DNA from: Bacillota bacterium
GTDB taxonomy: Bacteria > Bacillota > Dethiobacteria > Dethiobacterales > Dethiobacteraceae
Direction of reading: 5' to 3'
Length of the DNA stretch: 64,000 nucleotides
Assembly (NCBI GenBank): GCA_012800795.1
Contig: JAAZIQ010000048.1
Span: 1,279 to 65,278 of the forward strand
Part shown: positions 4,101 through 63,542 of the stretch, in pieces
Position numbering within the stretch: position 1 is the first letter of the stretch
Layout of the letters: every line of letters starts with the position of its first letter
The notes under the pieces: generated by a model
What the model was told of the DNA's origin: nothing
The model's database searches: none
The model's input: the letters and a program-made list of their open reading frames with translations, nothing else
Made by a program: the position numbers and the translations under genes

Positions 4101-4625
4101 ATGATTAATTTGAGCCAAACTTCACCTCATAAAAATCACAATTATGCAACCAATCTACTTATTTCTTTGCTGATGCGTTTTCCTGAGATCATGTCAATTA
4201 ATTTTAATTTACCGCGCGATAAAGCCAAATTTACTTTTGTGTTAAAGGGCAAACCCAGTAAGGAAGAATTTGCTCATTTTACTTGGCTGCTGGAAGAGTC
4301 ATTTTTAACATTGCAGGAAATATCAGAAGAAACTGTTAAAGTAAAAACTAAACTGCAAAGCGCCCAAGACATAAGCATCTTAACCGTATCATCAAACACC
4401 TCCTGCTTATCGCTGGAAAGCATTCAATTAATTTGTGGAGTAGTATGTAGTGAGTTTTCTCATACCGTCATACGCGATGCCGATACATTAGAAACTTTTC
4501 ATGACGATGAATTAATGCGCCAGGAAGAAATTATCGATTATTTATTAAGCCGCAGCACTGCTGCAAAGGATGGCAATTTGGTGGCATTTCGTGACTCCGG
4601 TAAAGTTTTTGTCTATAATAAGTAA
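4101..4625 (+). CDS. Hypothetical protein (174 aa) between rny and ymdB
   Basis: GGGGAG RBS and a long ORF on the operon strand. No family recognised. Confidence 0.6.
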   Translation: MINLSQTSPHKNHNYATNLLISLLMRFPEIMSINFNLPRDKAKFTFVLKGKPSKEEFAHFTWLLEESFLTLQEISEETVKVKTKLQSAQDISILTVSSNTSCLSLESIQLICGVVCSEFSHTVIRDADTLETFHDDELMRQEEIIDYLLSRSTAAKDGNLVAFRDSGKVFVYNK

Positions 4626-5923: not shown

Positions 5924-6916
5924 ATGAAAGTGAATGGCATCCTAAAAGATATTTTTATTGCTGATGGCCACTGCGACACTGTGCATCACTTTCGAGGCAC
6001 TGCAGGGTATAATTTTAGCAAGGCCAATAACATTGGACATATAGATTTGCCCCGCTTGCAAAAAGGAGGTGTCGCCTTACAGTTTTTTGCCTTGTTTGTT
6101 GAACCGGAATTTAAGCCCTTCCAAGCACTGCAGCGAACGCTGCAATTAATGGAACATTTTCTTTCTGAAATGAAAAAAAATGGCGATCAGATAAAAGTTA
6201 TTCGTACGCAACAGGATTTGGCAGAAGCCATAAAGCAGCAAAAGTTGGCGGCACTAATGAGTCTGGAGGGTGCTGAAGCCCTGGAAGCAGGAGTAGAAAT
6301 TTTGCAGATTTTTTTCCGTCTTGGCTTGCGCGGCGTTGGGTTGACATGGAACCAAAGGAACGGCTTAGCCGACGGAGTAAGCGTAGGTAAAGCTGCCGGA
6401 GGGCTAACTAAACTTGGAAAAACAATGGTGCAGGAAATGAACCGCCTGGGAATAATTGTAGATGGAGCGCATCTGGCGCCACGAGGCTTTTTTGACCTCC
6501 TGGAAACTTCAACAAAACCTGTTGTTATTTCACATGCCAATGCAGCTGCACTTTGCTCCCACCCGCGCAATCTATCTGATGAACAATTAAAGGCGTTGCG
6601 CGATCACGGAGGAGTTGTAGGACTAACCGTTTTTCCCGATTTTATAGTGGATGAAGGACCGGCAACTCTTGCAGATTTGTTGGATCATTTCTGTTATATT
6701 GCTGAACATTTTGGAACAGACATTTTAGCCATTGGCGCAGACTACGACGGCATAAAAAATACTGTGGAAGAATTAAGTGATGTCAGCAAAATGCCGCTTT
6801 TGCTTCATGGTTTATTAGAACGCGGCTTTAGCAAAAATGAAGTAAAAAAAATAGCAGGGGAAAACTTATTAAGGATTGTCCGTAGTACACTGCCAAAGGA
6901 GGAAGTTATATTTTGA
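5924..6916 (+). CDS. Membrane dipeptidase (peptidase M19 family)
   Basis: DGHCDT motif and M19-like length. Start moved to ATG 5924, which has an upstream GAAGGGAGA RBS. Confidence 0.85.
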   Translation: MKVNGILKDIFIADGHCDTVHHFRGTAGYNFSKANNIGHIDLPRLQKGGVALQFFALFVEPEFKPFQALQRTLQLMEHFLSEMKKNGDQIKVIRTQQDLAEAIKQQKLAALMSLEGAEALEAGVEILQIFFRLGLRGVGLTWNQRNGLADGVSVGKAAGGLTKLGKTMVQEMNRLGIIVDGAHLAPRGFFDLLETSTKPVVISHANAAALCSHPRNLSDEQLKALRDHGGVVGLTVFPDFIVDEGPATLADLLDHFCYIAEHFGTDILAIGADYDGIKNTVEELSDVSKMPLLLHGLLERGFSKNEVKKIAGENLLRIVRSTLPKEEVIF

Positions 6917-11055: not shown

Positions 11056-11322
11056 TTATTTGTGCCAGATACGCTCGGCATAAAGCTCTTTTCCCTTAGT
11101 AGTAAAAAAATATACCTCTTCCGCATCGCCGGTACCGGTAGTCAGTAATGATTCTACTACAGGCCATTGTGACTTTGCGAAGCGTGCTGCAATGCCGCAG
11201 GAAGAGGAAATTATGCGGGGAACCGGTATCATGGTTACCTGCTGACCATTGCTTTTCATAATTTTTTCAAAGCGCAGAGCCTGCGAAGTTGAATAAAAGG
11301 TTGCTACATAATAATCGTTCAT
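11056..11322 (-). CDS. DUF3343 / putative Se-S carrier-like protein
   Basis: About 88 aa with a conserved PVPRIISSSCG motif. Start set at ATG 11322 after a GAGGGA RBS. Confidence 0.75.
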   Translation of the reverse strand: MNDYYVATFYSTSQALRFEKIMKSNGQQVTMIPVPRIISSSCGIAARFAKSQWPVVESLLTTGTGDAEEVYFFTTKGKELYAERIWHK

Positions 11323-11580
11323 CTTATCCCTCGCTTCAAAAAACACAATCACAGCTTCTGCTGCTAAAAATACCAATACTATCTTATCAAGCAGTAGCAA
11401 AAGTTACAAGGCGGATAAGAAGGAACAATTATCAATAACATAAATAAAAATTATAGATTATATCAATAGGCAATAATGTAATTAAAGCCGATAGAATTAT
11501 AGAAGTTAAGTTTATGGCAGGAGTTATGCTTGCCAATTACGAACAATATAAAACAACCAAAAAGGGAAAAGGTGTAATCA

Positions 11581-29886: not shown

Positions 29887-31419
29887 CTAGCATTGATTTT
29901 CTTCCTCCTTTTGCAGGGCTAATAATTTGTTTAAACCATTCAAATATGCACGTACGGAAGCCTCAACAATATCTGTTGAAGTGCCGCGTCCCACAACAGT
30001 TTTATTTTCGTATCTCAGGATGATAGATACCTCGCCTAAGGCATCACGCCCCTCCGTAACACCGCGCAGATTGTAGTTTTCCAGACGCGGCTGAAAACCT
30101 GTGATTTTATCGATGGCGTTGTAGGCAGCATCTAGCGGACCGCTGCCGGTCTGCATTTCCACATAAATCTCATTATCTTTTCTAAGTTTAACAATCGCTG
30201 CCGGTATACTGTTGGAACCACCAATAGTCTGTAAATATTCTAAACTATAAACTGTTTGAGCATATGTAATCTTTTCATTCATCAGTGCTTCCAGATCATC
30301 ACTTAATACTTCTTTTTTTCTTACGGCCAGTTCCAGAAAGCGTGTATAGAATTCTGCAAACTCTTCTTCAGTTAGGGAATAACCTAATTCCTTTAACTGA
30401 TTATATACTGCATGACGTCCGGAATGGGCTGTCAAGGCCATATTGGCAGCTTTGCCGCCTATCAAGTCAGCATTAATAATTTCGTAAGTTGCAGTATTTT
30501 TAAAAATGCCTTCCTGATGAAAATCAGCAGAATGCACAAAGGCATTAGTTCCGACCACTGCTTTATTGACCGGTATAGGTACTCCCATTAAGTTTGATAC
30601 TAAACGGCTTGTTTTATAAATTTCATCCATTTTAATCTCATGATAATAGTTTTGGAAAAAATCATGACGAATTAGCATTGCTACAACGATTTCTTCCAAC
30701 GCAGCATTTCCTGCCCGCTCACCAATACCATTAATATTGCATTCAATTTGACGTGCACCATTTTGTATGGCAGCGAGGGAATTAGCAACGGCCAGTCCCA
30801 GATCATTATGACAGTGAACACTAACGATAGTCTTATCAATATTGGGAACTCTATTCATAATATTACGAATCAAGCCCCCAAATTGTTCCGGCACTGCGTA
30901 ACCAACAGTGTCAGGAATATTAATTACAGTGGCTCCAGCATCAATCACAGCTTCAATAATACGACACATATAATCAAGTTCGCTTCTTGTTGCATCTACT
31001 AGAGAATATTGAATATCTGTAGTATACTGTTTTGCATATTTTACTGCTTCTACACCGATTTTTAAGACTGCTTCCGGGTCTTTACCTAATTGATATTGTA
31101 TATGGATAGGTGAAGAAGAAAGAATAATATGTATGCGGGGCCGCGGTGAATCTTTAATTGCTTCCCAGGCAGCATCAATATCCGCTTTTGAAGCCCGTGC
31201 CAAAGCTGTAATAATAGGTCCTCTCACTTCTCTGGCTATTTTCTGGACTGCCTTAAAATCATCGGGAGAAGAAAAGGGGGTCCCACATTCGATAACATCC
31301 ACATTGAGTTTTGCCAATTGCTGGGCAATCTTCAATTTTTCCTCTAAATTTAGTTTAGCCCCAAGGGATTGTTCTCCGTCGCGCAGCGTAGAATCAAAAA
31401 TCATTATTTTTTCAGCCAT
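29887..31419 (-). CDS. 2-isopropylmalate synthase / (R)-citramalate synthase family
   Basis: IFDSTLRDGEQS, HCHNDLGLA and a C-terminal LeuA-dimer domain. Start set at ATG 31419 after GGGGAGG. Confidence 0.9.
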   Translation of the reverse strand: MAEKIMIFDSTLRDGEQSLGAKLNLEEKLKIAQQLAKLNVDVIECGTPFSSPDDFKAVQKIAREVRGPIITALARASKADIDAAWEAIKDSPRPRIHIILSSSPIHIQYQLGKDPEAVLKIGVEAVKYAKQYTTDIQYSLVDATRSELDYMCRIIEAVIDAGATVINIPDTVGYAVPEQFGGLIRNIMNRVPNIDKTIVSVHCHNDLGLAVANSLAAIQNGARQIECNINGIGERAGNAALEEIVVAMLIRHDFFQNYYHEIKMDEIYKTSRLVSNLMGVPIPVNKAVVGTNAFVHSADFHQEGIFKNTATYEIINADLIGGKAANMALTAHSGRHAVYNQLKELGYSLTEEEFAEFYTRFLELAVRKKEVLSDDLEALMNEKITYAQTVYSLEYLQTIGGSNSIPAAIVKLRKDNEIYVEMQTGSGPLDAAYNAIDKITGFQPRLENYNLRGVTEGRDALGEVSIILRYENKTVVGRGTSTDIVEASVRAYLNGLNKLLALQKEEENQC

Positions 31420-31670
31420 AAATAAATCCTCCCCATTTACTTTAAACAACACTATACTAACATAAAAAAACTTTTCGCCGTTTTATGGCGATAAGTTTAG
31501 CAGTCAATCTAATATGATGGATACATCCAGATGCTTGCAAACTTTTTGCCATATGGAAATTTTAAAATATCATAACAAAAAAATGCAAAAAGTCAAGGAT
31601 TTGTGTGATTTGGGATTTTTATGTGTAACCAGCTATAATAGATACAAAAAAAGTCAAATAGGGTGAACAA

Positions 31671-35290: not shown

Positions 35291-35671
35291 ATGAAATCAA
35301 GGGTAGTACTGGCGGAATTTCGCTCAAAGGATACTGCCAAGCAGGCAGTACAAAAACTGGACGAGCACGGTATTAGAAATGTCTCTTTGCAGCAAATTGG
35401 CAACACACCTATCGAAGGTATAGATACCATGAGTAATGCCTATGCAGGCGAATTGCCGCTCTTTGCACGCGGCATCAAAGGCAGCGACATTGCCATTGAA
35501 GGAAGAACCGATGCTTTACTTTACAACCGGGAGTCAGCTGAAAAAATAATGGGAGAAGGGAATAAAGTCGTAAATGCTTATCTTATTACAGTAGAAGCCA
35601 CCACCCAGGAGGAAACACGGTTAGTAGAAAAAATTTTGCGGCAATACGGAGCCGCTATCCACATCAAATAA
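35291..35671 (+). CDS. Hypothetical protein (126 aa)
   Basis: AAAGGTGAG RBS and a clean ORF. No confident family (the N-terminus is vaguely general-stress YflT-like). Confidence 0.55.
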   Translation: MKSRVVLAEFRSKDTAKQAVQKLDEHGIRNVSLQQIGNTPIEGIDTMSNAYAGELPLFARGIKGSDIAIEGRTDALLYNRESAEKIMGEGNKVVNAYLITVEATTQEETRLVEKILRQYGAAIHIK

Positions 35672-35815: not shown

Positions 35816-36901
35816 TTGAAAAACTTTTTAGCATCACGACGCGGAATCATATTTGTTGGCGGCGTTATTGGAATTTTAGCAGCATTTCTGCAAAAATTGG
35901 GCAACCCTGGCAACATGGGTATTTGTGTAGCCTGCTTTGAGCGCGATATTGCAGGAGGGTTGGGGCTCCATAGAGCACCCATTGTTCAATATGTACGTCC
36001 GGAAATAATCGGTCTTGTTTTAGGTGCTTTTATAGCTGCTTATCTTTTTAAAGAATTTAAACCTCGCTCGGGCTCCGCTCCGCTTGTCAGATTTATTCTC
36101 GGAGCTTTTGCCATGATTGGAGCACTAGTCTTTTTAGGTTGTCCCTGGAGAGCTTTACTTCGTTTGGCAGGCGGAGATGGCAACGCCATTTTAGGTTTAC
36201 TTGGATTAACAGTCGGTGTTTGGATCGGTACCATCTTTTTGAAAAACGGTTATACTTTAGGACGTACACAAAAAACTTACAAAGCTGCCGGCTTTGTTTT
36301 CCCCTTGCTAATGGTGGGACTATTAGTAGCTGTGCTGCTCAACCCTCAAGTTGAAGGGGCAGAAAAAAGCGGTATTTTATTTTACAGCCTCGAAGGTCCT
36401 GGATCAATGCATGCACCGCTTATAATCTCACTTTTATTTGCTATAGTCATAGGCTTTTTGGCACAGCGTAGCCGTTTTTGCACCATGGGGGCAGTGCGAG
36501 ACTTGATTTTATTTAAGCACACACATCTTTTCAGCGGCGTAGTCAGTTTAGTAGTTGCAGCATTTATCACCAATATTATCTTTAAACAATTTAATCCTGG
36601 TTTTAGCGGTCAACCGGTAGCGCATACAATGCATCTCTGGAATTTTGCCGGCATGGTATTAGCAGGATTGGCTTTTGCTTTAGCCGGAGGTTGCCCCGGC
36701 CGACAGCTCTTTTTGGCAGGTGAAGGTGACGGCGATGCTGCCATTTTTGCCCTCGGCATGATAATAGGAGCCGCATTCGCCCATAATTTTGGCTTGGCCA
36801 GCTCAACCGCAGGTGCTACACCTGCTGGTATGGTAGCAACAGTAATAGGTCTAATAGTCTGCATGCTAATAGGTCTTACCATGAGAGAAAAAGTAGTCTA
36901 A
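35816..36901 (+). CDS. YedE/YeeE family sulfur/selenium-compound transporter
   Basis: Multi-TM protein with two conserved Cys loops (GICVACFERD, SRFCTMGAVRD). TTG start after GGGAGGAG. Confidence 0.85.
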   Translation: MKNFLASRRGIIFVGGVIGILAAFLQKLGNPGNMGICVACFERDIAGGLGLHRAPIVQYVRPEIIGLVLGAFIAAYLFKEFKPRSGSAPLVRFILGAFAMIGALVFLGCPWRALLRLAGGDGNAILGLLGLTVGVWIGTIFLKNGYTLGRTQKTYKAAGFVFPLLMVGLLVAVLLNPQVEGAEKSGILFYSLEGPGSMHAPLIISLLFAIVIGFLAQRSRFCTMGAVRDLILFKHTHLFSGVVSLVVAAFITNIIFKQFNPGFSGQPVAHTMHLWNFAGMVLAGLAFALAGGCPGRQLFLAGEGDGDAAIFALGMIIGAAFAHNFGLASSTAGATPAGMVATVIGLIVCMLIGLTMREKVV

Positions 36902-36914
36902 GGAGGTGCAAAAG

Positions 36915-37130
36915 ATGAGTAAAATAATAGACGCTAGGGGCCTTTCCTGCCCACAGCCTGTTATGTTAACTATTAATGAGCTAGAAAATACCACTGAAAC
37001 TCAACTGGAAATCTTGGTTGACACCGATACTGCAAAAGAAAATGTAACCCGAGCCATAACTTCACAAGGATGGCAGGTTGCAAAAATTGAAACTTTGGAT
37101 GATGAATATAAAATAGTCATAAAAAAATAA
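36915..37130 (+). CDS. TusA/SirA (YedF/YeeD)-like sulfurtransferase
   Basis: DARGLSCPQP CPxP motif, 71 aa, AAGGAGG RBS. Confidence 0.8.
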   Translation: MSKIIDARGLSCPQPVMLTINELENTTETQLEILVDTDTAKENVTRAITSQGWQVAKIETLDDEYKIVIKK

Positions 37131-37152
37131 GCTTATCAATTTTTAGGGAACT

Positions 37153-37198
37153 AAAGCCCCACCTTCCACGTCAAAAAAGAAATGGGAGGTGGGGCTTT
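37153..37198 (+). other. 12-bp GC-rich hairpin covering the SD and start of the next gene
   Basis: AAAGCCCCACCT pairs with AGGTGGGGCTTT. The 3' arm contains GGAGGTGGGG and the TTG at 37197. Confidence 0.6.
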
Positions 37199-37523
37199 GC
37201 GTAAGCTTACATTTTTATTATTCTTTGTTATTGCAATGCTTCTAACAGCCTGCGCCAACAATAAAACTTTTACTGCCACTGTGCTGGAAAACAATGAAAC
37301 TTCAATACTGGTGCAGCCTGAAGCTAATGCCACAGAGGCAAAATCGGCTGATAAAATAACAATTTCACTTAAAGATGCAGTCATTTTAGATATCAATGAA
37401 ACCAAAACAAATGTTTCTGAAATTAAAGTTGGTAAAAAAATCGAAATTTCTTATGACGGTGTCATTGCTGAAAGTTACCCGGCGCAAATTAACAATTGCT
37501 ATCAGATAAAACTGTTAGATTAG
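37197..37523 (+). CDS. Small lipoprotein (DUF3221/YobA-like)
   Basis: Lipobox LLTAC and an AESYPAQ motif near the C-terminus. Start is uncertain (TTG 37197 or ATG 37182). Confidence 0.7.
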   Translation: MRKLTFLLFFVIAMLLTACANNKTFTATVLENNETSILVQPEANATEAKSADKITISLKDAVILDINETKTNVSEIKVGKKIEISYDGVIAESYPAQINNCYQIKLLD

Positions 37524-37581
37524 CAGTACAAAAAAGAGAGGAGCAATTACTAAAAAATTGCCCTCTCATAAAATTTTAATA

Positions 37582-37609
37582 ACGTCCGATAATATATATT
37601 ATGTTAACT
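37582..37609. other. dif: dif chromosome-dimer resolution site (Xer recombinase target)
   Basis: ACGTCCGATAATATATATTATGTTAACT matches 24/28 of B. subtilis dif as I recall it. It lies in an AT-rich gene-free gap at the coding-strand switch. Confidence 0.8.
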
Positions 37610-37904
37610 ATGCGATATTTTAAAAGAAAATAGAATTCAGTTTTGTTATACGTTGAAATAAATTTTAACGAAAAAAATGCATCCGATTATATTGAGGAAA
37701 CTCATACTCATACAAAGTCAATCCTATCAAATTCACTATTACCCAAAGAAAAATTAATTAAAATAGCCAAAAGCATGGATAACTAGTAAGTAGTAAAAAA
37801 ATAAAATATTATTTATAACGAATTACCTCCTTTTACGTTTATATTCTAGAAGCAATAAAAAGGGTAATATTTTGGTTATAGAGTAGAAAGCTGCTTCTTC
37901 TTGA

Positions 37905-38676
37905 TCATGCTTTCTTTAAAGTAACAACAACCAATTCCGGCCGATTAAAAACACGGACGGGGAAAATACTGTTCCCTAGACCACGACTTACAACCATGGA
38001 GGTGGCACCACTGCTGTAGACTCCAGCGGTATATTGGGGAAATAGGCCTTGGTTAGGCGCTATTAAACCGCCGATAAAGGGCAATCTTATTTGTCCTCCA
38101 TGGGCGTGACCGCTAAAAACCAAGTCTATCTGCAGATCACTGTATAATTCAAAAAGCTCCGGACGGTGGGAAAGCAGGATGTTAAATTTGGTGTCTATAC
38201 CGTCTAACAAGTTTTTCAGTTCAGCTTCAACATAACGGGAACCATCATCCCATAGGTAGGATTCTTCACTTTGATGGACGGCAGGATCGGCTAAACCTAA
38301 AAGACCGATCCTGCCTCCTTTTTTTTCAATTACTGCGTATGAATTATCCATGATATTTACATTTAATACTTCTAATTTTCTTTTTAAAGTAGTATAAAGA
38401 CCGGATAACTGCTCATGGTTACCCGAAACATAGTATGTAGGCGCTACTTTTACTACTTCTCGCATAAATTTTTCTGCCGCTTCAATATTTGTATTTCGCC
38501 GATCAATGAGGTCCCCCGTTATCACAATTATCTCAGGATTTAGCTTCCTGATTTTTTCTATTAGTTTGCCTTGAAAATCTTTATTATGCAGATCTGAAAT
38601 GTGTGCAATTGTAAAATTATTGAAAGCCGCAGGTAATTTAGGACTGGCATTTGATCCATTTTTTCCTGTTTCCCAT
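37905..38676 (-). pseudogene. Calcineurin-like metallophosphoesterase, frameshifted at an A6 run near the 5' end
   Basis: ATG 38676 has an AGAGAGG RBS but stops after 12 codons. The +1 frame continues into ...FTIAHISDLH...GDLIDR...GNHE...GHAHGG. Confidence 0.7.
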
Positions 38677-38714: not shown

Positions 38715-40076
38715 TTAGTTACCTGAACTTACTGCTGCCTGCAGCACCGTCCCTGCCACAGCCGCCGCAGCCCCGCTGCCACTGCCGCCATTTTCTATCA
38801 ACACCACAAAAGCCAGCGGATAATCATCCCTTGCTAAAAAGCCTGCAAACCAGGCATGCGGCCTCTTTCCTTGTCCCACTTCGGCCGTACCCGATTTAGC
38901 ACAAAGCTCAAGGTTTTTAAAGTTGTGCTCGCCATAAACACTTTTCGTATTATTTCTCATCATAGCCTTAAGTTTGGCAGCAGTTTCAGCTGATAAGATT
39001 TGTTTTTTTTGAATTCTTGATAAGAAACTATTGTTTTCTGCAATTAATTTTGGTGGAATGAGCACACCATTATTTGCAATTGCACCCACGAAAGCCATAA
39101 AGTTTAGTGGATTTGCCGTATTAGTGTATTGGCCGATGCCGGCCCAAGCCAGTTCTACATCAGCTGCATTTATAACATTCACTTTGCCTATGGCGGTTTT
39201 GATTCCATCCAACTCCAGAGATGAATTAAAACCGGCTAGATTCGCATATTTCTGTAAAGTGCTTGCCCCCAATTCCAAGGAAATTTGTGCAAAAGCTACA
39301 TTACAGGAATGAGCCAGAGCCTGCTCAAATGTGACGCTGCCATGCTCCCTCAAACAAGTAACCATATCAGCTCCAATTTTCATTTTCCCTTCGCAGTGGT
39401 AAAGTTTACTCTCAAGCCCAGGAAGATTATCCAGGGCAGCAGCAGCTGTAACCAGCTTAAAAATGGAACCCGGAGGATAAACAGATGAAAGAAAACGGTT
39501 AAGATAAACCCCTTCATATTGCTCTGGTGAACCTTCAATATTGGGAGGATTTGCCGGATCAAAGGACGGTGAACTAACCATACAAAGAATTTCCCCCGTC
39601 TGGTAATTATAAACCCCTACTGCTCCTTTACGGCCGTTAAGCGCTTTGTATGCTGTTGCACATAACTTGCCTTCCAAAGTAAGGTAAAGATCAGCACTGT
39701 CACCCATTTTTCCCCGAAATCGATATACTCCATTTAGCAGGTTCCAACCGATTAAATGTTCCCCAAATGCAACTTTAACACCGGTTGCAACGTTGTTGTG
39801 CAGATCTCCGACTGCATGCATCAGGGCGGTACGGACGGCCTTATCCTGATGAAATTTTGTACTGCCATCCTTTACTTCCAGCAAAATCTCACCTGAACGA
39901 TCGTATATACTGCCGGAAGCCTTTAACTTTCCATTATTAAAAAGATGCTTGTTGGTGGGATGCTGCACCCAGGCGGAAGCATGGTTTAAATACTGTATGA
40001 TAAAGGCTGCAATGCCAAAAACAAGCAGGCTTGATAATAAAAATAAAACAACTGAACGTTTAAACAATAGCTTCAT
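38715..40076 (-). CDS. Class B penicillin-binding protein (PbpA/FtsI-type transpeptidase)
   Basis: TM anchor and SxxK (SIFK), SxN (SCN), KSG (KSGT) motifs. Start set at ATG 40076. Confidence 0.9.
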   Translation of the reverse strand: MKLLFKRSVVLFLLSSLLVFGIAAFIIQYLNHASAWVQHPTNKHLFNNGKLKASGSIYDRSGEILLEVKDGSTKFHQDKAVRTALMHAVGDLHNNVATGVKVAFGEHLIGWNLLNGVYRFRGKMGDSADLYLTLEGKLCATAYKALNGRKGAVGVYNYQTGEILCMVSSPSFDPANPPNIEGSPEQYEGVYLNRFLSSVYPPGSIFKLVTAAAALDNLPGLESKLYHCEGKMKIGADMVTCLREHGSVTFEQALAHSCNVAFAQISLELGASTLQKYANLAGFNSSLELDGIKTAIGKVNVINAADVELAWAGIGQYTNTANPLNFMAFVGAIANNGVLIPPKLIAENNSFLSRIQKKQILSAETAAKLKAMMRNNTKSVYGEHNFKNLELCAKSGTAEVGQGKRPHAWFAGFLARDDYPLAFVVLIENGGSGSGAAAAVAGTVLQAAVSSGN

Positions 40077-40112
40077 GCGACTCACCTTTGTTCCATTCTG
40101 TGCCCAAATTAG

Positions 40113-41831
40113 TTATTGTTTTACAGAGCGAATTAATGCCAATAGTGCCCACGAGGTTATCATAGAAGAGCCACCATTGGAGATAAACGGAATGGTTACA
40201 CCGGTTAGTGGCAAAATGTCTGTTGAACCTAAAACATTTAATGCTGTCTGTACCACAAGAATAGTGGCTGCTCCACAGGCAGAAATGGTATAGAATGCCG
40301 AACGGCTGTTGCCCGCTAAAAGAACTGGATAGATACCCAAAAAAACAATTATTGAAACTACCACCAGCGCAATCAGAAGTCCCCATTCCTCACAAAGTAT
40401 ACCAAAAACCAAATCAGTATCGGCTGCAATTACATTAACCAAGTAGCCGTTACCGCCGCCTACACCTAAAAGGCCACCGCTGGCAGCGGCTATCATTGTG
40501 CGTGTTTGTTGATAACCAGAGGTATTGGCGAACTGCCAGGCTCTTCTCCATACTGCAAAACGTTTAGTAACATAAGGAACAAATGCCACAACTCCTATAC
40601 CGACAAAGAAAGCAGCTGCCACCAATAGAGCAAGTGAGCGAATATCTCCTGATTGCATAAACGCCATTATTACAAAAGCAGCAAAAAAAACTAATGCCGT
40701 GCCAAAATCTCTTATGAGGACAAGTGTCAGAATACAGGCACAAGAAAAAGCAATAAAAGCAGCCATATTGCGTGTTGTAAGCAGCCTATCCAATGTAGCC
40801 GTACCGGCCAATACAAAAGCCACCTTCACAAACTCCATAGGTTGAAAGGTGATAAAGCCAAGGTTTATCCAGTTTTTTGCACCGAAATAGGTTTCCCCCA
40901 GTGCCAGATTCATAACCAGCAACACAAGGGCACCACTCATTAAGAAATATTTTATTTTTACCGCTTGCCCCAGCTTCTGAAATAGAAAGTCAATCACAGT
41001 ATAAACTGTCATACCGATTAGAATTGCAGTAAGCTGTTTGTAAAGTGAATTTGGTGCTGCTGATGCCACAATGAGCATATTCATCCCGCAAAGAAAATAA
41101 GCAAGCAAAACCATTTCAAGAGCATTACGCTTGTAGCAGCGTAAAAGCAGGTAATGAGAACATTCTGCCAAAAGCAAAAGCAAGATACTCGCCGGCAGTG
41201 CGGGCATAACAGCAGATCCTTTTGCAACAACAAGCTGTAAAGCTCCCAGTAGCTGATAGATTAAAATTAAAAGCAAAGTGAAAGTAGTTGTGCTTCTTCT
41301 ATTTTCTGATATTTTACCTAAAGGTTCAGTCTCAGCAGCTAACAGCAGCAAATCTAAGCCTGCCAAAGTAATTGTATCTCCGAAATTTAGTGTCTGCCGC
41401 CCCTCTATCTCAGCTCCGTTAACCTTTATGCCGCCCTTGGAGCCTAGATCGGTAATGGACCAAATGCCATCATGAAATGTAAGCACGGCATGATTTCTAG
41501 AAATAAATGGCAGATTTATCATGATATCGGAGTTTTTGCCGCGCCCGATCATGCTTTCCCAACTTGTAATGGGGAACCAGATATCATTAAACAGATACAG
41601 GTTACCCCAAATGGTTTTTGTTTTTCTCTCGCGCAAAAGCGGCAAAACACACCATAAAAATATTATTATAGATAATATGGGAAGTATCCATCTTACTAAA
41701 AAGGTATAATAATCTCCTGTTACAGAAAAAATCTTAAGAGTTATAACGGGCCTTTTAACAAATTTAAGCAAGTTGTTTATATCCTGCTGTACAATTTGTT
41801 TTACACTTTCCAGAAAACTAATCATTTTCAC
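40113..41831 (-). CDS. FHA domain fused to a SEDS (FtsW/RodA/SpoVE) glycosyltransferase
   Basis: N-terminal TM helix, FHA signature (GRGKNSDIMINLPFISRNHAVL...DLGSKGGIKVNG), then a roughly 10-TM SEDS core. Confidence 0.9.
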   Translation of the reverse strand: MKMISFLESVKQIVQQDINNLLKFVKRPVITLKIFSVTGDYYTFLVRWILPILSIIIFLWCVLPLLRERKTKTIWGNLYLFNDIWFPITSWESMIGRGKNSDIMINLPFISRNHAVLTFHDGIWSITDLGSKGGIKVNGAEIEGRQTLNFGDTITLAGLDLLLLAAETEPLGKISENRRSTTTFTLLLILIYQLLGALQLVVAKGSAVMPALPASILLLLLAECSHYLLLRCYKRNALEMVLLAYFLCGMNMLIVASAAPNSLYKQLTAILIGMTVYTVIDFLFQKLGQAVKIKYFLMSGALVLLVMNLALGETYFGAKNWINLGFITFQPMEFVKVAFVLAGTATLDRLLTTRNMAAFIAFSCACILTLVLIRDFGTALVFFAAFVIMAFMQSGDIRSLALLVAAAFFVGIGVVAFVPYVTKRFAVWRRAWQFANTSGYQQTRTMIAAASGGLLGVGGGNGYLVNVIAADTDLVFGILCEEWGLLIALVVVSIIVFLGIYPVLLAGNSRSAFYTISACGAATILVVQTALNVLGSTDILPLTGVTIPFISNGGSSMITSWALLALIRSVKQ

Positions 41832-43231: not shown

Positions 43232-43912
43232 TTATTGATGCAGTACCAGTTGTGCTAATTCTAAAGGAGCAATATGCCGGCCACCCTTATAAGCACGCAT
43301 ATTTCCACCTGATATTTCATCAATTAAAACTATTTGATCATTAATTTTGCCAAACTCAAATTTTATATCGTACAGCTCTATATTAACCTTAGCCAGCTCT
43401 TCCTTAACCACCTCGGCAATTGTTTTAGTTAAATCTTTAATTTCTTTATATTCATCCGCCGTTAGAATCCCCAGCATCACCAGGGCATCTTTATTTATAA
43501 AGGGATCACCTTTTTCATCATCTTTAATGGTAAACTCCACAAGAGCATCAAGGGGCTGGCCAGGCTGCACATATTTCTCATAGCGGCGCAAAAAACTACC
43601 CACCGCTCGATAACGGCAAATTACTTCTAACCCTTCGCCAAAAACCACAGCAGGCTTGACTTTCATTGTTGCTTTTTCAATATCTGCTGCTATATAATGA
43701 GTCGGTATAGCTTTTGACTGTAAGATTTCGAAAAAATGTTTTGTTAAAAGCAAACCGGCCTTGCCTGCACCTTCAATGGTCAGCCCAACTGTGTTGGCAC
43801 CAGGGTCAAATACTCCATCTTCGCCGGTACAATCATCCTTGAATTTAAGCAAATAATTACCGTCAGCTAGTGCATAAACATCTTTGGTCTTACCTTTATA
43901 AAGCAGCTCCAT
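43232..43912 (-). CDS. purC: SAICAR synthetase
   Basis: LLYKGKTKDVY N-terminus and a full-length PurC-like sequence. Confidence 0.93.
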   Translation of the reverse strand: MELLYKGKTKDVYALADGNYLLKFKDDCTGEDGVFDPGANTVGLTIEGAGKAGLLLTKHFFEILQSKAIPTHYIAADIEKATMKVKPAVVFGEGLEVICRYRAVGSFLRRYEKYVQPGQPLDALVEFTIKDDEKGDPFINKDALVMLGILTADEYKEIKDLTKTIAEVVKEELAKVNIELYDIKFEFGKINDQIVLIDEISGGNMRAYKGGRHIAPLELAQLVLHQ

Positions 43913-44026
43913 TATATTATCCCCTTCTCCTATATCTATTTTATTTTACACAAAAAACCAGCATAGTTTCAAGAGAAATAACCAGTTTTCTGAGTAAAAC
44001 CGTTTGCAAGTTAAAAGTTGTGTAAT

Positions 44027-46118: not shown

Positions 46119-46144
46119 AACTCCCCTTCTCTCCTTTTTCAGCT

Positions 46145-47293
46145 TTAATATTTACCGTACTCTTTTACAAATTCAATGACGGCCTGTAAATTTTCGGTTT
46201 TAAAGTCACTGCCACGAATGGCCGCTTTACTTGCAGAAAAAATATAATTTCCGCCAACAGCCAAATTGTCCAATGTTCTCTTTGCTTCTTCTATACACTC
46301 CTCTTTAGTACCTGTCTTCAAAACTATAGCCGGAAAACCATGGCTGAAAACATGGCGTGTCGTTACTTTTTCTGCTATCAGCTTCTGGTCGGAATCCTCA
46401 AAAGCAAGTTTAACCGTACCTGGCAAATCGTTTAAGAGGTCAAGATGTGGATCCCAGTTCTGCTCACAGAAAATTGAAGGCATAAATCCTTCTTCCTGAG
46501 TGGCTATTATTAATTTTTTAAAGGTTGGCCACCAAAACTTCTCCACTTCTTTGGGACGCATAAAAGGCGGCATATGTAAGGGATAACTAATGCAAGGTAT
46601 GGCACCCCTTTTAGGCGTATTTTTTATTTGTCTGATTTCATACTCCAGCACGGCTTCGCATGCCTCAAGTACCCACTGTGGCTTTCTCTTAATATCTATT
46701 AAAATTGTCGAAAAACTACGAATATAATCAGCGATAAAATCAAAAGGCGCCCACAGTAAACCACACATCCCTATCACATTGGCCCGCTGATATTTTTCAA
46801 CTAATCTAGGTCCCATGCCGGCAAACTTCGAAGCCACCACATCGCGCGCTATTTTTATTTTTATATTTCCCAGCAGCGGATCCTCCTGTAAAATTCCAAA
46901 TACACGCGGCTGTATTTTTCTCACTATAAACTCAAAGGGATCTTTAATAAACTCGGGGTATTCATCAAATTCCAACGGCGCAATGTCGGGATGCTGATAA
47001 AAACCATCGGCGCCCGGCTGCATGAATTTTTGATCTACATACCGGTAGACGGCAGCCTGACTGAAAGGATTCGTCGGCAGTGTGTCAGAGTCAAAAAGAC
47101 GCGCCATTTCTTCAGCTGCCTCATAAATTCTTTCCGGACTATATAAGTCGCGCAAAAGATTGTAACCAACTTTTTCGAGTGCAGCCTCTACTGTTATGCC
47201 AATACTAATGGGGACCCTGGCAGGCCTTTTACCGCTATGGACATCGAGAAATAATTGGTTTCTTTCTTCTTGCAAAGTTTGTTGCGCACACAT
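46145..47293 (-). CDS. Uroporphyrinogen decarboxylase (URO-D) superfamily protein, MtaA/CmuA-like methyltransferase candidate
   Basis: Length and N-terminal region (GKRPARVPI) resemble the URO-D/MtaA family. The assignment is tentative. Confidence 0.55.
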   Translation of the reverse strand: MCAQQTLQEERNQLFLDVHSGKRPARVPISIGITVEAALEKVGYNLLRDLYSPERIYEAAEEMARLFDSDTLPTNPFSQAAVYRYVDQKFMQPGADGFYQHPDIAPLEFDEYPEFIKDPFEFIVRKIQPRVFGILQEDPLLGNIKIKIARDVVASKFAGMGPRLVEKYQRANVIGMCGLLWAPFDFIADYIRSFSTILIDIKRKPQWVLEACEAVLEYEIRQIKNTPKRGAIPCISYPLHMPPFMRPKEVEKFWWPTFKKLIIATQEEGFMPSIFCEQNWDPHLDLLNDLPGTVKLAFEDSDQKLIAEKVTTRHVFSHGFPAIVLKTGTKEECIEEAKRTLDNLAVGGNYIFSASKAAIRGSDFKTENLQAVIEFVKEYGKY

Positions 47294-48691: not shown

Positions 48692-49960
48692 TCAATATTT
48701 AAGCTGCTTAAAACTATGATTGTCATAAACAAATCTGCTTTTCTTTTGCTTTCGTTTGCGCCTTATAAAAAATACTAAAAATAGCAGCAAAACTGCCGGC
48801 GCAGCGACAATAGAATAATAAGGCCTGCTGTTGGAGTTTTCTTCTGTAATTGTCAGGTTAGCCTGACCCAGCTCAGAATACATTAAATTGTTTGTTTCTT
48901 TTAAATTAAAACTAATCTGTATTACTGTTTGATTAGGACTGCTCAGTAGCAGCTTTATATTTGCTTTAATATCCGAATCTTTTAAGCTCTGATGCACTAA
49001 TCTTTCAATCTTAGCCGGATTAAATTTTAAGTTTTCCGCTTTATCCAGTTCCAATTCTGCACGGCGCTCTTCCACCAGACTGCTTGCGGCAAAAGATACC
49101 GTCCTAAATTCATTAAACCCATATTCCAATAATTTAACTGTATCTTTATATTTACTGTCAGCGGTTGGACTGCTTAAAACCACTACAATCAGTTTTCTTT
49201 CCCCTTTTTGGGCTGCTGTTACTAAAGTATGTCGAGCCTCCGGCGTCCAGCCGCTTTTACTGGCAATTACCCCCATATCCTGTATTTCACCGTTTATAAG
49301 TGAGTTGGTACTGTTTAAATATCTTGTTTCCGGCTGCTTATTGGTAGGAACTATTTCAAAACGTTTTTTACTGAAAATAGTAAGAAATTGGGGATTTTTA
49401 ATAGCCTCTCTTAATATCTTGGCCATATCATAAGCAGTGGTATAGTGATTACTTGCATGTAAACCGTGTGCATTGGCAAAATTCGTATTTTCTGCCCCCA
49501 AATCCTTTGCTTTTTCATTCATCAACTTAGCAAAGGAAGCCAAATCACCGGCAATATACTCGGCTATCCCATTGGCCGCATCATTGGCAGAAGCAATGGA
49601 AAGTGCGTAAAGAGCTTGTTCCAAAGTTATTACTTCATCTACATCCAATGCTATATGTGATGTTCCTCTGCCGATAGAAAAAACGGCTTCTCTGCTCACA
49701 ATAATCTTATCTTCCAAATTCCCCTTCTCCAGAGCCAACATTGCTGTCATAATTTTTGTAATGGATGCCGGGTAATGCCGCTGATTCATATTTTTTTCAT
49801 ACAAAACTTGTCCCGTCTCTGCATTCATTAACACCGCTGCTTCTGACTCTAAAACAGGGGGCTTGACCTGGGCAAACATTTTAGTAGGAAAAACAAGATT
49901 AATAAGCAAAATTAGTCCAACTGCTATAACCATTATTTTATGTTTTTCATTGACCAGCAT
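48692..49960 (-). CDS. D-alanyl-D-alanine carboxypeptidase (S11)
   Basis: Signal/TM segment, SITK (SxxK) motif, C-terminal anchor. Confidence 0.9.
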   Translation of the reverse strand: MLVNEKHKIMVIAVGLILLINLVFPTKMFAQVKPPVLESEAAVLMNAETGQVLYEKNMNQRHYPASITKIMTAMLALEKGNLEDKIIVSREAVFSIGRGTSHIALDVDEVITLEQALYALSIASANDAANGIAEYIAGDLASFAKLMNEKAKDLGAENTNFANAHGLHASNHYTTAYDMAKILREAIKNPQFLTIFSKKRFEIVPTNKQPETRYLNSTNSLINGEIQDMGVIASKSGWTPEARHTLVTAAQKGERKLIVVVLSSPTADSKYKDTVKLLEYGFNEFRTVSFAASSLVEERRAELELDKAENLKFNPAKIERLVHQSLKDSDIKANIKLLLSSPNQTVIQISFNLKETNNLMYSELGQANLTITEENSNSRPYYSIVAAPAVLLLFLVFFIRRKRKQKKSRFVYDNHSFKQLKY

Positions 49961-53796: not shown

Positions 53797-54636
53797 TTAA
53801 ATGCGCTGAAAGAATATTCCCAAAGTGTTCGGTCCGCAATGTGCCGCAATTGTCGAACCAGCCTCTGAAACAATAATTTCTTTAAATTCAGCATGTTTTA
53901 AGATTTCTGTTTTTACCGACGCCACTGTTTGTGGGGAACAGGCGGCATGTGTTAAATAAATTCTTTGTAAATCAAGATCTTTACGTTCCGCCAGTTTGTC
54001 CTCAATATAACGCTTCACCGCTTTTTCGAACGAACCTCTGTATTTTTTGCCCACTGTCATTTTCCCGTCCATTACTTCAATGCACGGCCTTATATTCAAC
54101 AGCTTTGTAGCTTGCAGCGCAAGACCAGAACACCGTCCCCCGCGGTACAAATAATCTAAACGATCAATAACGAAACTCCCCTCTGTCTTTTCTATTATCT
54201 CCTTTAACTTTTGACATATTTCCTCTGGAGTATGACCCTTCTCAGCTAATAAAGATGCCTCCAGCGCAAGCAGTCCGGCACCGGTAGATAGGCTTTGCGA
54301 GTCTATGACATATACATCTGGGAAACTTTGTGCTGCTAAAACGGCATTTTGATAACATGAGGAAAAACCCGAGCCCAATGAAATATGAATTACAGGACAA
54401 TTTTGTGAAGTCAATTCAGCAAAATACGTATGGAACTGATGGATATTAATAGCTGCAGTTTTACACGTTTTCCCTTCACCGTCTACAGACTTAAAAATAT
54501 CGGAAGGTTGAATTTCCTCACCATCAATATAGCTCTGCTCCCCTACAATCACTGTGAGCGGTATGATTGAAATATTATACTCTGTTAAAAGCTGTGGTGT
54601 CAGATCACAAGCACTGTCTGCACTAATTTTAATCAT
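53797..54636 (-). CDS. DegV family fatty-acid-binding protein
   Basis: MIKISADSACDL N-terminus and about 279 aa, typical of DegV. Confidence 0.9.
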   Translation of the reverse strand: MIKISADSACDLTPQLLTEYNISIIPLTVIVGEQSYIDGEEIQPSDIFKSVDGEGKTCKTAAINIHQFHTYFAELTSQNCPVIHISLGSGFSSCYQNAVLAAQSFPDVYVIDSQSLSTGAGLLALEASLLAEKGHTPEEICQKLKEIIEKTEGSFVIDRLDYLYRGGRCSGLALQATKLLNIRPCIEVMDGKMTVGKKYRGSFEKAVKRYIEDKLAERKDLDLQRIYLTHAACSPQTVASVKTEILKHAEFKEIIVSEAGSTIAAHCGPNTLGIFFQRI

Positions 54637-60542: not shown

Positions 60543-63542
60543 TTAGACCACCTTCCTTATATTGCAGAGAAAGGCCTTGTATTCGGGTATACTTGTATTC
60601 GCATCACCAATGGAAGGCACAAGATCATTGACAATATCTCCTCTGTTTAATCCCATATAGCCCCAGTGAAATGGCATGCCCACTATTTCCCGCAATTCGC
60701 CATTAATCAGAAGCGGTTTTAAGCGTGGTGTAATACAAGCAATGGCGGCAATTTCTTTTTTACGGTAACTGCTGACTAAAACTTTATCTCCATTCTTTAT
60801 ATTTAATTTTTCTGCTAAGGTCGGGCTGATTTCGATAAATAACTCGGGCATTAATTCATTTAGCCAGGGAGTATTTCTGGTCATAATTCCTGACTGCCAG
60901 TGTTCAGTAACACGGTAAGTCGAGATAATATAAGGATAATTGTCATCTCCGGCTTCCGCCAAATGATTTTCATACCAAATTTTTGACACGGGATTAAATT
61001 GGACAGTTGTGGAGAGTAAATTGCGAATGGGACTCTCCGCCGGCTCATAATGCTCTGGGAACGGACCGTCTGCCATGGTATTGGCAAATAGTCTTGCCTG
61101 CTGTTCCGGCAGCATTATAAATGGACTTTGAGCAGTAGCGTCGGGAGGAACATTGGCATTAAAATCAGGCACATCATTGCGCTGCCATGTGGAACCATCC
61201 CACCACATTAAAGGAATTTCAGGATTCCAGGGCTTACCCTGGGGATCAGCAGAGCAACGATTGTATATTATGCGTCTGTTCAACGGCCAAGCAAATGCCC
61301 ATTGGGCATTAGTGCCAATCCCTGTTTCCTCCTTAATACGGCTTTTGCAGGCTGGGTTTGTAGTGTTATTATAATATCCACTGTAAATCCAACAGCCACA
61401 AGCAGTACTGCCATCATCTGCCAGATTGGTAAAGTCCTGTATAAGAGTGCCCGTTCTGGTATCGTAGCCGTTAATTTCCATGGCCACTTTATTGGCATCG
61501 GGCTCCTCTCCATAATCCCAAACCATATTTAAGATTGGATCAGGAAACGGTCCCGGATTTTTTTCATATTCTGCCCGAATAGCTTTGAAAAGGCGATCAA
61601 CAATCCAAAGATCCGTTTTAGCATCACCTAATGGTTCTTGTGCCTGATAACGCCATTGAATCCAGCGGCCGCTGTTAGCAACGGTACCTTCACGCTCATA
61701 TGAAGCAGAAGCAGGCAGTAAAAATACCTCTGTATCAATTTTTGTCGGATCAACCCCCGGCTCTTTCCAAAAAGCAGCTGTTTCATTTTCAAATATATCA
61801 ATAGAAACGAGCCAATCAAGATTTTTTGTATAGTTGCGTTTATCAGAAGCACTGGGTCCGGTTACGGCAGGATTGTCTGCCCAGCAGATCATGCCCTTTA
61901 TTTCACCTTCACCCATATACTTATACATGCCGATATGAGAGCGATCTTTATCGTCTAATTTTGGTAAATAATCATAACAATAATCATTTTCTTTAGTGGC
62001 AGCATCCCCATACCAAGCTTTAAGCATACTGATTAAAAATTTAGGTTTATTAGCCCAGTAGCCGCTGGAGGGGGTTTCCTTTTCCAGGTATGCTGCTAAA
62101 TTTTCATGCTGAGCAGCTTTTGGCATGTTTAAATAGCCTGGCAGGAGATGATAAAGCATAGCCATGTCCGTAGAGCCTTGAACGTTAGCCTGGCCACGCT
62201 GTGCATTCACGCCGCCGCCGGGAATGCCAATGTTGCCGAGCAGCAGCTGCAGGCAAGCAATAGCACGTACATTTTGCGAACCATGCGTAAATTGTGTTAT
62301 ACCCATAGCATAAAGAATATTACCGGCTTTGCCAGCCTGACCAGTACTGGCATACAGCTCGGCCACTGCCTTTAATTTCTCAGACGGGCAGCCCGTAATC
62401 TTGCTAACAGTTTGTAGATCATAACGTTCGTAATGTTTTTTCATTAACTGCAGCACCGATTGAGGATCTTTTGCTGCAGGATCTTTTTTTATGCTGCCGT
62501 CTTCATTTAATTGATAACTCCAAGAGCTTTTATCATAAATAACAACGCGGTCTTCCGCCTCTAGGGCTCCTGAAAACAACCCGTCTTTAAAAGAATAGTC
62601 CGGATTAACAAGATAAGTGGCATTGGTATAGTTTAATACATATTCTTTGTGATAAAGTTCATTTGACAGGATGTAATTGATAATGTAGCCCAAAAAAGCA
62701 ATATTGGTACCCGGCCGTATCGGTGCATATAAATCAGCCACGGCGGCAGTACGGGTGAAACGTGGGTCCACTACTATCAGCTTAGCTCCCCTTTCTGCGC
62801 GGGCACGTTCAATCCATTTCATGGAAATGGGATGGTTTTCCGCCGGGTTACAGCCAAAAGCCATTATCACATCGGAATTTTTATAATCAATCCAGTGGTT
62901 CGTCATTGCACCCCGTCCAAATGTGTTGCCCAGACCGGCAACGGTGGAGGAGTGTCAGAGACGGGCACAGTGGTCAATATTTATAATTCCAAGTGCCCGA
63001 ATCATTTTTTGGTAAAGATAATTCTCTTCATTGGTGCAGGTAGCGCTACCCAAATGAGCAATCGCCCTAGTCCGGTTAACTGTCACCCCATTTTCATCGA
63101 CTCTTTCAAAAGTTGAGTCCCTTGTTTCTTTGATGCGTTTGGCAATTTCCGTTATAGCCCAATCCCAGTCTACTTCCTGCCACTCTGTAGCTCGTTTAGC
63201 CCGATAGAGTACTTTTTTCACGCGTTTCGGGTTTTCAACCGCCTCTCCCTGTTGATTATAAACGTAAGAAAGATTAAAAACCGAACTGCCTTTACTGCAT
63301 AAAGAACCTTCATTGATGGGATGATCGGGATCACCTTCTGCACCTACGACTTTATTATTTTGTACATAGCAGATTATTCCACATCCCACTGAACAATATG
63401 GACAAATTGTAGTAACTTCCTTTGCATATTGCACAGGTACTCCTGCAGCCTCAGCACTGTCGAAAAAGCCAAAGTTGGCTAAAGTAACAGTACCAAGAGC
63501 TACACCTGTAAGTTTAAGAAAATCTCGGCGGGATAATTTCAT
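60543..63542 (-). CDS. Formate dehydrogenase catalytic subunit (FdnG-type), selenocysteine-containing, Tat-exported
   Basis: Track ORFs 62955..63542 and 60543..62906 are in frame across TGA at 62955-62957, giving [27 protein letters not shown]. Tat motif SRRDFLK. Confidence 0.93.
62925..62942 (-). promoter_or_regulatory. SECIS-like hairpin downstream of the UGA
   Basis: GUUGCC-GGUCUG-GGCAAC starts 12 nt 3' of the UGA. The GGUC-containing loop resembles the E. coli fdhF SECIS apex. Confidence 0.7.

Follow-up and report, generated by a model that had tools for sequence, protein, structure and literature searches.

A 28-bp sequence at a replichore junction is very probably the chromosomal dif site of an uncultured biogas-reactor Bacillota bacterium

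Introduction

The locus described here raises the question of whether a 28-bp sequence, located in a gene-free spacer where the prevailing orientation of genes changes, is the dif site of a bacterial chromosome, and, if so, what the DNA around it reveals about the place where the two replichores meet. An initial annotation of the window, i.e., the whole 64-kb stretch of DNA that was analysed, had suggested both, as it described a dif site at a coding-strand switch and concluded that the window spans the replication terminus. The analysis reported here followed up these claims within the window and in related sequences. The 28-mer fits the profile of published dif sites, is present once in the window, resides in non-coding DNA where gene orientation and skew switch, and is conserved in other genomes, all of which are features of a dif site. 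Considering this, it was concluded with high confidence that this sequence (37582-37609) represents the chromosomal dif site of an uncultured biogas-reactor Bacillota bacterium.

Sequence and layout of the site

The 28-mer ACGTCCGATAATATATATTATGTTAACT locates to positions 37582-37609 of the window on the + strand, and both its sequence and its coordinates were found to be exactly as first annotated. It is composed of two arms and a centre (ACGTCCGATAA / TATATA / TTATGTTAACT) and thus shows the 11-6-11 layout. The left 11-bp arm ACGTCCGATAA (37582-37592, + strand) is the putative site of a recombinase of the XerC/CodV type, an assignment that was made by position and by analogy with E. coli and B. 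subtilis. Likewise, the right 11-bp arm TTATGTTAACT (37599-37609, + strand) would serve a recombinase of the XerD/RipX type, and the 6-bp centre TATATA (37593-37598, + strand) is the presumed place of strand exchange. The arms of ACGTCCGATAATATATATTATGTTAACT are partly palindromic, in that their inner bases ATAA and TTAT are mutually complementary.

The B. subtilis 168 dif site was reported to be ACTTCCTAGAATATATATTATGTAAACT at position 1,942,542 (Kono et al. 2011 Table S1, PMC3025954), and the sequence which the initial annotation had used agrees with it. The identity of 24/28 between this site and the window site, as aligned by hand at that time, was likewise obtained again. Across the whole window (~128,000 positions, both strands), the next-best match to B. 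subtilis dif amounts to 18/28, a value which was found at seven positions besides 37582-37609, with 18 further positions reaching 17/28. Among 100 dinucleotide-preserving shuffles, zero matches within 3 mismatches were obtained. For scoring, a position weight matrix was built from the 17 distinct Firmicutes dif sites listed by Kono et al. 2011 (Table S1, PMC3025954), and this matrix assigned 41.7 bits to ACGTCCGATAATATATATTATGTTAACT, the published sites themselves scoring 25.7-44.9 bits when evaluated by leave-one-out. The second match of the matrix was the reverse strand of the very same site (7.8 bits), and the best unrelated position within the window scored 3.2 bits. ACGTCCGATAATATATATTATGTTAACT is single copy within the 64-kb window, and the matrix scan identified no second dif-like site of at least 14 bits in the window, so that nothing points to an integrated element between two copies of dif.

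Gene orientation and skew around the site

When ORFs supported by Pfam or by length were counted as genes, 30 of the 33 genes left of dif were found to locate to the + strand (1-37523, positive GC skew), and 18 of the 25 genes to its right to the - strand (37905-64000, negative GC skew), the former stretch being assigned to the end of one replichore and the latter to the end of the other. The difference in orientation is pronounced (30+/3- left versus 7+/18- right of dif; Fisher p=9e-7). The orientation switch described initially is therefore real and its right-hand count of 18/25 stands, though the left-hand estimate of 32/36 had to be revised to 30/33.

Cumulative G-C reaches its window maximum of 907 at 27680 and amounts to 899 at 37000-37500, with a dip over the minus-strand lexA and leuA-like genes (28.6-31.5 kb) in between, and from dif onwards it declines steadily to the end of the window (64 kb). 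Owing to this dip, the skew shift takes the shape of a 10-kb plateau (27.7-37.5 kb), with dif at the right-hand end, from where the values fall. The skew was determined to be 0.082 for co-oriented genes versus 0.053 for head-on genes, which identifies it as mostly a coding-strand effect. GC skew was hence rejected as support independent of gene orientation, and both together were taken as one line of evidence instead of two.

A plateau of this length, together with the dominance of coding-strand bias over the skew, would also be compatible with a chromosomal dif at 37582-37609 next to which the replication forks meet elsewhere nearby, such that the orientation and skew switch only approximates the replichore junction. 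This accords with the work of Kono et al. 2011 (PMC3025954), in which termination was argued to occur near dif, but not strictly at it. However, it is at dif itself that cumulative G-C starts to fall steadily, and such a displacement of the forks is considered to be quite unlikely; the identity of the site would remain unaffected by it. With regard to the initial statement that the window spans the replication terminus, the location of dif at the replichore junction was retained, whereas the term "replication terminus" should read "replichore junction".

Next to the site itself, the initial annotation had pointed to three copies of the octamer GAGAAGGG, which it took to be the SpoIIIE-orienting octamer of B. 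subtilis, an identification confirmed by published work (PMC3384302 and PMC5869595). The positions, strands and orientation of these copies (3047-3054, + strand; 43922-43929 and 46124-46131, both - strand) were right, but exhaustive scanning raised their total from three to six, as the copies at 35553-35560 (+ strand), 49722-49729 (- strand) and 54236-54243 (- strand) had been missed. When the orientation of GAGAAGGG was counted, all six copies turned out to point toward dif and none away from it. According to Markov models of order 1-4, 0.65-1.0 copies would be expected toward dif and 0.2-0.3 away from it, and the six copies observed hence correspond to a roughly six-fold leading-strand enrichment. 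However, octamers of the A3G5 type, i.e., those with the composition of GAGAAGGG, are together already 81% co-oriented in the window, and for this reason the orientation of GAGAAGGG alone adds little. In total, 65 octamers, GAGAAGGG among them, reach a ratio of at least 6:0 within the window, and an unbiased ranking identified A-rich coding words as the most polar octamers (e.g., AAAAGAAA with 26:1 and AAAGAAAC with 14:0). All six copies of GAGAAGGG reside on the sense strand of local co-oriented genes, four of them inside ORFs and two just upstream. One of these, the copy at 43922-43929, is positioned 9 nt upstream of the ATG of the gene 43232-43912 and may hence also act as ribosome-binding site. 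As its polarity is no greater than that of similar words, GAGAAGGG was rejected as independent support for dif; the octamers are compatible with the dif interpretation and add little to it. No guiding motif common to the Firmicutes was found in published work, the motif of Lactococcus being GAAGAAG (Nolivos et al., PMC3384302), and the real guiding motif is beyond the reach of a 64-kb window.

Gene content of the window and the spacer

The gene content of the window is clearly that of chromosomal housekeeping DNA. On the left side, the order is recA, recX, rny, ymdB, a dinB-like gene, miaB, mutS, mutL and miaA, followed by genes for a spoVK-like AAA protein and a ynbB-like protein, glnA, copA, nth and lexA. 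After lexA, genes for a yneA-like LysM protein, a leuA/cimA-like synthase, a ROK kinase and a HAD hydrolase are found, to which adenine deaminase, yedE/tusA and DUF3221 genes are joined before dif is reached. On the map of B. subtilis 168, recA, rny, ymdB, mutS, mutL, miaA, spoVK, glnA and lexA likewise precede dif in this order, with recA, mutSL, glnA and lexA also approaching it from the same direction. Among the 58 window ORFs, Pfam identified no tyrosine recombinase of the Phage_integrase family, and no FtsK/SpoIIIE gene was found in the window; the existence of the partner enzymes of the site is hence an assumption.

The site itself resides within a gap between two convergent genes, i.e., the DUF3221 gene (+ strand), which ends at 37523, and the Metallophos gene (- strand), which ends at 37905. 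This gap (37524-37904), which had been announced as a 380-bp AT-rich and gene-free one, was measured to comprise 381 bp with a GC content of 25.7% as compared to 40.8% for the window, and no ORF of at least 50 aa was found in it. An Rfam scan of the whole window at the gathering threshold identified no family, and hence no known RNA in the gap. Located 3' of the DUF3221 gene and 13 nt before dif, a hairpin (GAGAGGAGCAATT...AATTGCCCTCTC, 37537-37568) was read from the sequence, which is probably the transcription terminator of the DUF3221 gene. For this region, a terminator scan predicted a terminator-like site solely on the minus strand (37541-37563).

As a side observation, the Metallophos gene next to dif (37905-38648, - strand) was found to be devoid of its 5' end, the first 41 codons being absent. 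Its frame is open and homologous to the 288-aa orthologue of the related contig L111 (introduced below) up to position 38648 (83% identity over 247 aa). The GTG at 38525 is not preceded by any ATG, GTG or TTG. The gene is likely a pseudogene or encodes a shortened protein.

Directly left of dif, a yedE-like Sulf_transp gene and tusA are located (35816-37130, + strand), and a Se/S-carrier-like gene was identified at 11056-11400 (- strand). Gene sets composed of yedE-like, tusA and Se/S-carrier genes are linked to selenium or sulfur handling, and their presence fits the likely selenoprotein gene at 60-63 kb. There, two ORFs (60543-62906 and 62955-63542, both - strand) share the same frame and are separated by one TGA (62955-62957). 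The 195-aa ORF encodes a TAT signal together with an Fe4S4 domain, and the 787-aa ORF a molybdopterin oxidoreductase, both within 60543-63542. The context of the TGA (HCARL*HSSTVAGLGNTFGRGAMTNHW) resembles the selenocysteine site of formate dehydrogenase, and a hairpin (GUUGCC-GGUCUG-GGCAAC) 12 nt downstream of it looks like a bacterial SECIS element, for which the Rfam scan gave no match at the gathering score. The region 60543-63542 (- strand) is thus probably one selenoprotein gene of ~1000 codons. Two further ORFs of the window, at 46145-47293 (- strand, 382 aa) and 4101-4625 (+ strand, 174 aa), gave no Pfam match at E<=0.001.

Within tusA, a stretch of 13 nt that exactly repeats the right dif arm and two flanking bases (TTATGTTAACTAT, 36961-36973, + strand) was encountered, which was dismissed as a coincidence. 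This stretch encodes the conserved CPQPVMLT motif, its DNA is not conserved in L111, and neither a dif-like centre nor a left arm is found next to it.

A syntenic relative and the possibility of a mobile element

The closest relative among the matches listed is L111 (JAAZJT010000012.1), a Bacillota MAG contig from an anaerobic digester which represents a different species-level MAG. Its nucleotide identity to the window amounts to 79-84% via yedE, tusA and DUF3221, and again for Metallophos and DUF2935. L111 keeps 27/28 dif bases, only the last one being changed from T to C, and the hairpin is present at the same place with a diverged sequence. The retention of these 27 bases between two diverged flanks is what would be expected for a non-coding site with a function. 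Homology of the window to L111 ends exactly at the right edge of dif. Beyond this point, the window possesses an AT-rich spacer of 295 bp (37609-37897), whereas L111 possesses 1.16 kb of other DNA (2406-3566) with ORFs of 150 aa and 89 aa. Further to the right, a 3.2-kb block of the window (38715-41831, - strand), with genes for a penicillin-binding transpeptidase and an FHA-domain FtsW/RodA fusion, was found to be absent from L111, hence pointing to an indel in the vicinity of the terminus.

A homology break of this kind, followed by different DNA, could also be explained if the 28-mer were not the chromosomal dif but dif-like DNA of a mobile element (IMEX, microvirus prophage) or a plasmid dimer-resolution site, and dif-like sequences with 82-96% identity over 24-41 nt do exist on Bacillus/Priestia plasmids and in gut microviruses. 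However, neither the 64 kb nor L111 harbours a second dif-like site, both flanks consist of housekeeping genes whose order is conserved, and the matches to phage and plasmid records do not reach past dif into the flanks. Moreover, the 295 bp right of dif are without an ORF of at least 50 aa, and gene orientation and skew flip at dif, all of which argues against such an origin and renders it very improbable. Some Microviridae integrate by using the Xer recombinases of their hosts, and the small gut microviruses OM869611.1, OQ686876.1, PQ006509.1 and MK496805.1 were found to carry stretches of 24-27 nt which are 92-96% identical to the window dif.

With the 28-mer taken as the chromosomal dif, the homology break at its right edge led to the idea that Xer recombination at dif might insert or remove small, integrase-less cargo and thereby reshape the terminus in this lineage. 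A 5'-truncated gene and the 3.2-kb indel are found just beyond the break, and related signs were observed at dif elsewhere, namely an assembly fork (L016/L068) and a partial tandem copy (L082). Nevertheless, this idea is regarded as a speculative and rather unlikely one.

The site in other genomes

The same DNA, including the identical site, was found in four independent metagenome assemblies, and exact look-ups of the DUF3221 protein and of RecA led only to contigs of 1.4-8 kb from metagenomes of biogas fermenters. A scan for the 24-nt core TCCGATAATATATATTATGTTAAC, in which each species was represented by one genome, yielded at least 119 loci, the core being present once per contig in the genomes of at least 119 other species; among the matches listed, one MAG (JASMTQ01) carries it on two contigs (L016 and L068). 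The core loci among the matches listed derive mostly from Bacillota (Alicyclobacillus, Brevibacillus, Aneurinibacillus, Marinococcus, Dethiobacter, Pelotomaculum and many MAGs) and in part from other phyla. The exact 28-mer is found in at least 24 genomes (24 of the 118 usable loci listed), among them Alicyclobacillus, Aneurinibacillus and Dethiobacter. When the 118 loci among the matches listed were compared, information content outside the 28-mer was found to drop to the AT-rich background within 2-3 bases. In these core-sharing loci, the left arm is the more variable one, its three outermost bases being subject to variation, and the last base of the right arm is T in 103 of the 118.

The skew was testable at 67 of the listed loci, i.e., those with at least 1.5 kb on each side of the core. 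The terminus pattern, which is positive skew to the left and negative skew to the right, was observed at 44 of these 67 loci, independent of the direction in which the site is written, and the reverse, origin-like pattern at two. In the complete records of Aneurinibacillus (CP116887) and Alicyclobacillus fastidiosus (CP104067), the identical 28-mer locates to 51.5% and 53.0% of the sequence respectively, positions which fit a terminus only if both records start at the origin. A second dif-like site of at least 14 bits was absent from the listed loci, except for a weak inverted one in the Tumebacillus locus L035 (5638-5715), which scores 17 bits and resides 50 bp from the main site.

That the 28-mer might be a chance AT-rich near-palindrome in an AT-rich spacer, as the GC content of 26% of this spacer and the composition of the central 16 bases of the site (all A/T but one G) could suggest, is excluded by the match scores (24/28 versus 18/28 elsewhere in the window; 41.7 versus 3.2 bits), by the zero matches obtained from shuffles and by conservation (27/28 in L111 with diverged flanks; an identical core at skew switches in more than 100 other genomes), so that its probability is negligible. 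All feasible tests within the window and in related sequences are in agreement with a chromosomal dif at the replichore junction.

Several further observations were made at the core loci. The two contigs of JASMTQ01 (L016 and L068) have the left flank and dif in common and continue with different DNA, i.e., they form an assembly fork, as would arise if dif carried an insertion in a fraction of the population. In L082 (~6440-6495, minus orientation), a partial second copy (ATAACAATATATTATGTTAACT) is located 3 nt upstream of the full site. The leuA/cimA-like synthase gene of the window (29887-31452, - strand) lies 6 kb from dif, and homologues with 64-67% nucleotide identity were found ~0.5 kb or less from the core in eight loci (L017, L058, L063, L071, L075, L085, L116 and L121), the titles of which name Bacillota, Dethiobacter/Dethiobacteria, Syntrophomonadaceae and, for one MAG, Desulfovibrionaceae. 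The synthase gene may hence be a conserved neighbour of the terminus.

In nine loci from small-genome gut Bacilli (Coprosoma-like, CAG:822; L006, L007, L012, L014, L019, L024, L064, L114 and L124), the core directly adjoins the end of a gene, the C-terminal part of which is conserved in sequence from locus to locus. In L024, the only one of them examined in this respect, the protein that ends at the stop codon of this gene is 261 aa long and HTH-like at its N-terminus. A right flank following the core (tgtatataaaagaaaatttgagtag) is conserved in the gut Bacilli loci as well, and those with enough flanking DNA show positive skew on both flanks, unlike most other listed loci. This neighbour of the core may represent a dif-associated gene or element. 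Finally, L105 (DASQNU010000188.1), which is labelled as Candidatus Bathyarchaeia archaeon, carries a dif of the Brevibacillus type (GAGTCCGATAATATATATTATGTTAACA) and is probably a misbinned bacterial contig.

A model for the function of the site

The model suggested for the site is based on analogy with the XerCD/dif system of E. coli and the CodV-RipX/dif system of B. subtilis. It assumes that an odd number of crossovers between sister chromosomes would yield a dimer, and that two tyrosine recombinases would then act at dif, one of them binding to the left arm ACGTCCGATAA and the other one to the right arm TTATGTTAACT. At the division septum, the recombinases would pair two copies of dif, and their exchange of strands over the TATATA centre would then release two monomers. 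Here, a septal DNA pump of the FtsK/SpoIIIE type, steered by polar G-rich words on each replichore, may serve to bring the dif copies together. For the site at 37582-37609, the pairing of recombinases with the arms, the dependence on FtsK, a guiding role of GAGAAGGG and the recombination reaction as such are what we infer from the two model systems.

Significance and comparison with known dif sites

The site fixes the replichore junction on a genome that is known only from metagenomes, and may be used for orienting and closing assemblies, for checking bins and for the reading of strand bias. It is also a further example of a highly conserved 28-mer which is common to several phyla. As Firmicutes dif sites have been routinely predicted by profile methods since 2007-2011, no open question of dimer resolution is answered by it.

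The closest published site is the dif of Macrococcus caseolyticus (ACTTCCGATAATATATATTATGTAAACT), which is identical to the window site at 26/28 positions (Kono et al. 2011 Table S1, PMC3025954). Bacillus anthracis dif (ACTGCCTATAATATATATTATGTTAACT) reaches 25/28 with a right arm identical to TTATGTTAACT, and the sites of B. cereus, S. aureus, Brevibacillus brevis and Leuconostoc citreum likewise reach 25/28 each (Kono et al. 2011 Table S1, PMC3025954). The centre TATATA is common to the window site and to B. subtilis, S. aureus and B. anthracis dif, and the exact 28-mer ACGTCCGATAATATATATTATGTTAACT was not found within the table text of the same publication (Kono et al. 2011, PMC3025954).

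With B. subtilis dif, the window site has in common its length of 28 bp, the 11-6-11 layout, the identical centre, 24/28 bases in total and the non-coding position at a replichore junction. The two sites differ by four substitutions, of which three fall in the left arm (positions 3, 7 and 9), where the window site reads CCGATAA and B. subtilis dif CCTAGAA, and one in the right arm (position 24). With respect to guiding sequences of the SRS/KOPS type, the likeness consists in the B. subtilis octamer GAGAAGGG being present six times and always directed toward dif, where about one copy was expected, whereas the difference is a polarity which in the window does not exceed that of similar words. 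B. subtilis dif is resolved by CodV and RipX, while the E. coli site works with XerC, XerD and FtsK, and the dependence on FtsK/SpoIIIE was reported to be looser in B. subtilis than in E. coli.

The E. coli dif site (GGTGCGCATAATGTATATTATGTTAAAT, with TTATGTTAAAT as its XerD arm) is of the same architecture and identical to the window site at 20/28 positions. The two arms differ markedly in their contribution to this value. The XerD arm TTATGTTAAAT matches TTATGTTAACT at 10/11 positions, which bears out the right-arm sharing noted at first, the 9-mer TTATGTTAA being common to both, whereas the XerC arm matches ACGTCCGATAA at only 5/11 positions. The centre is TATATA in the window site and TGTATA in E. 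coli dif. Taken together, the dif site at 37582-37609 is a routine further instance of the well-known XerCD/dif family, found in an uncharacterised organism.
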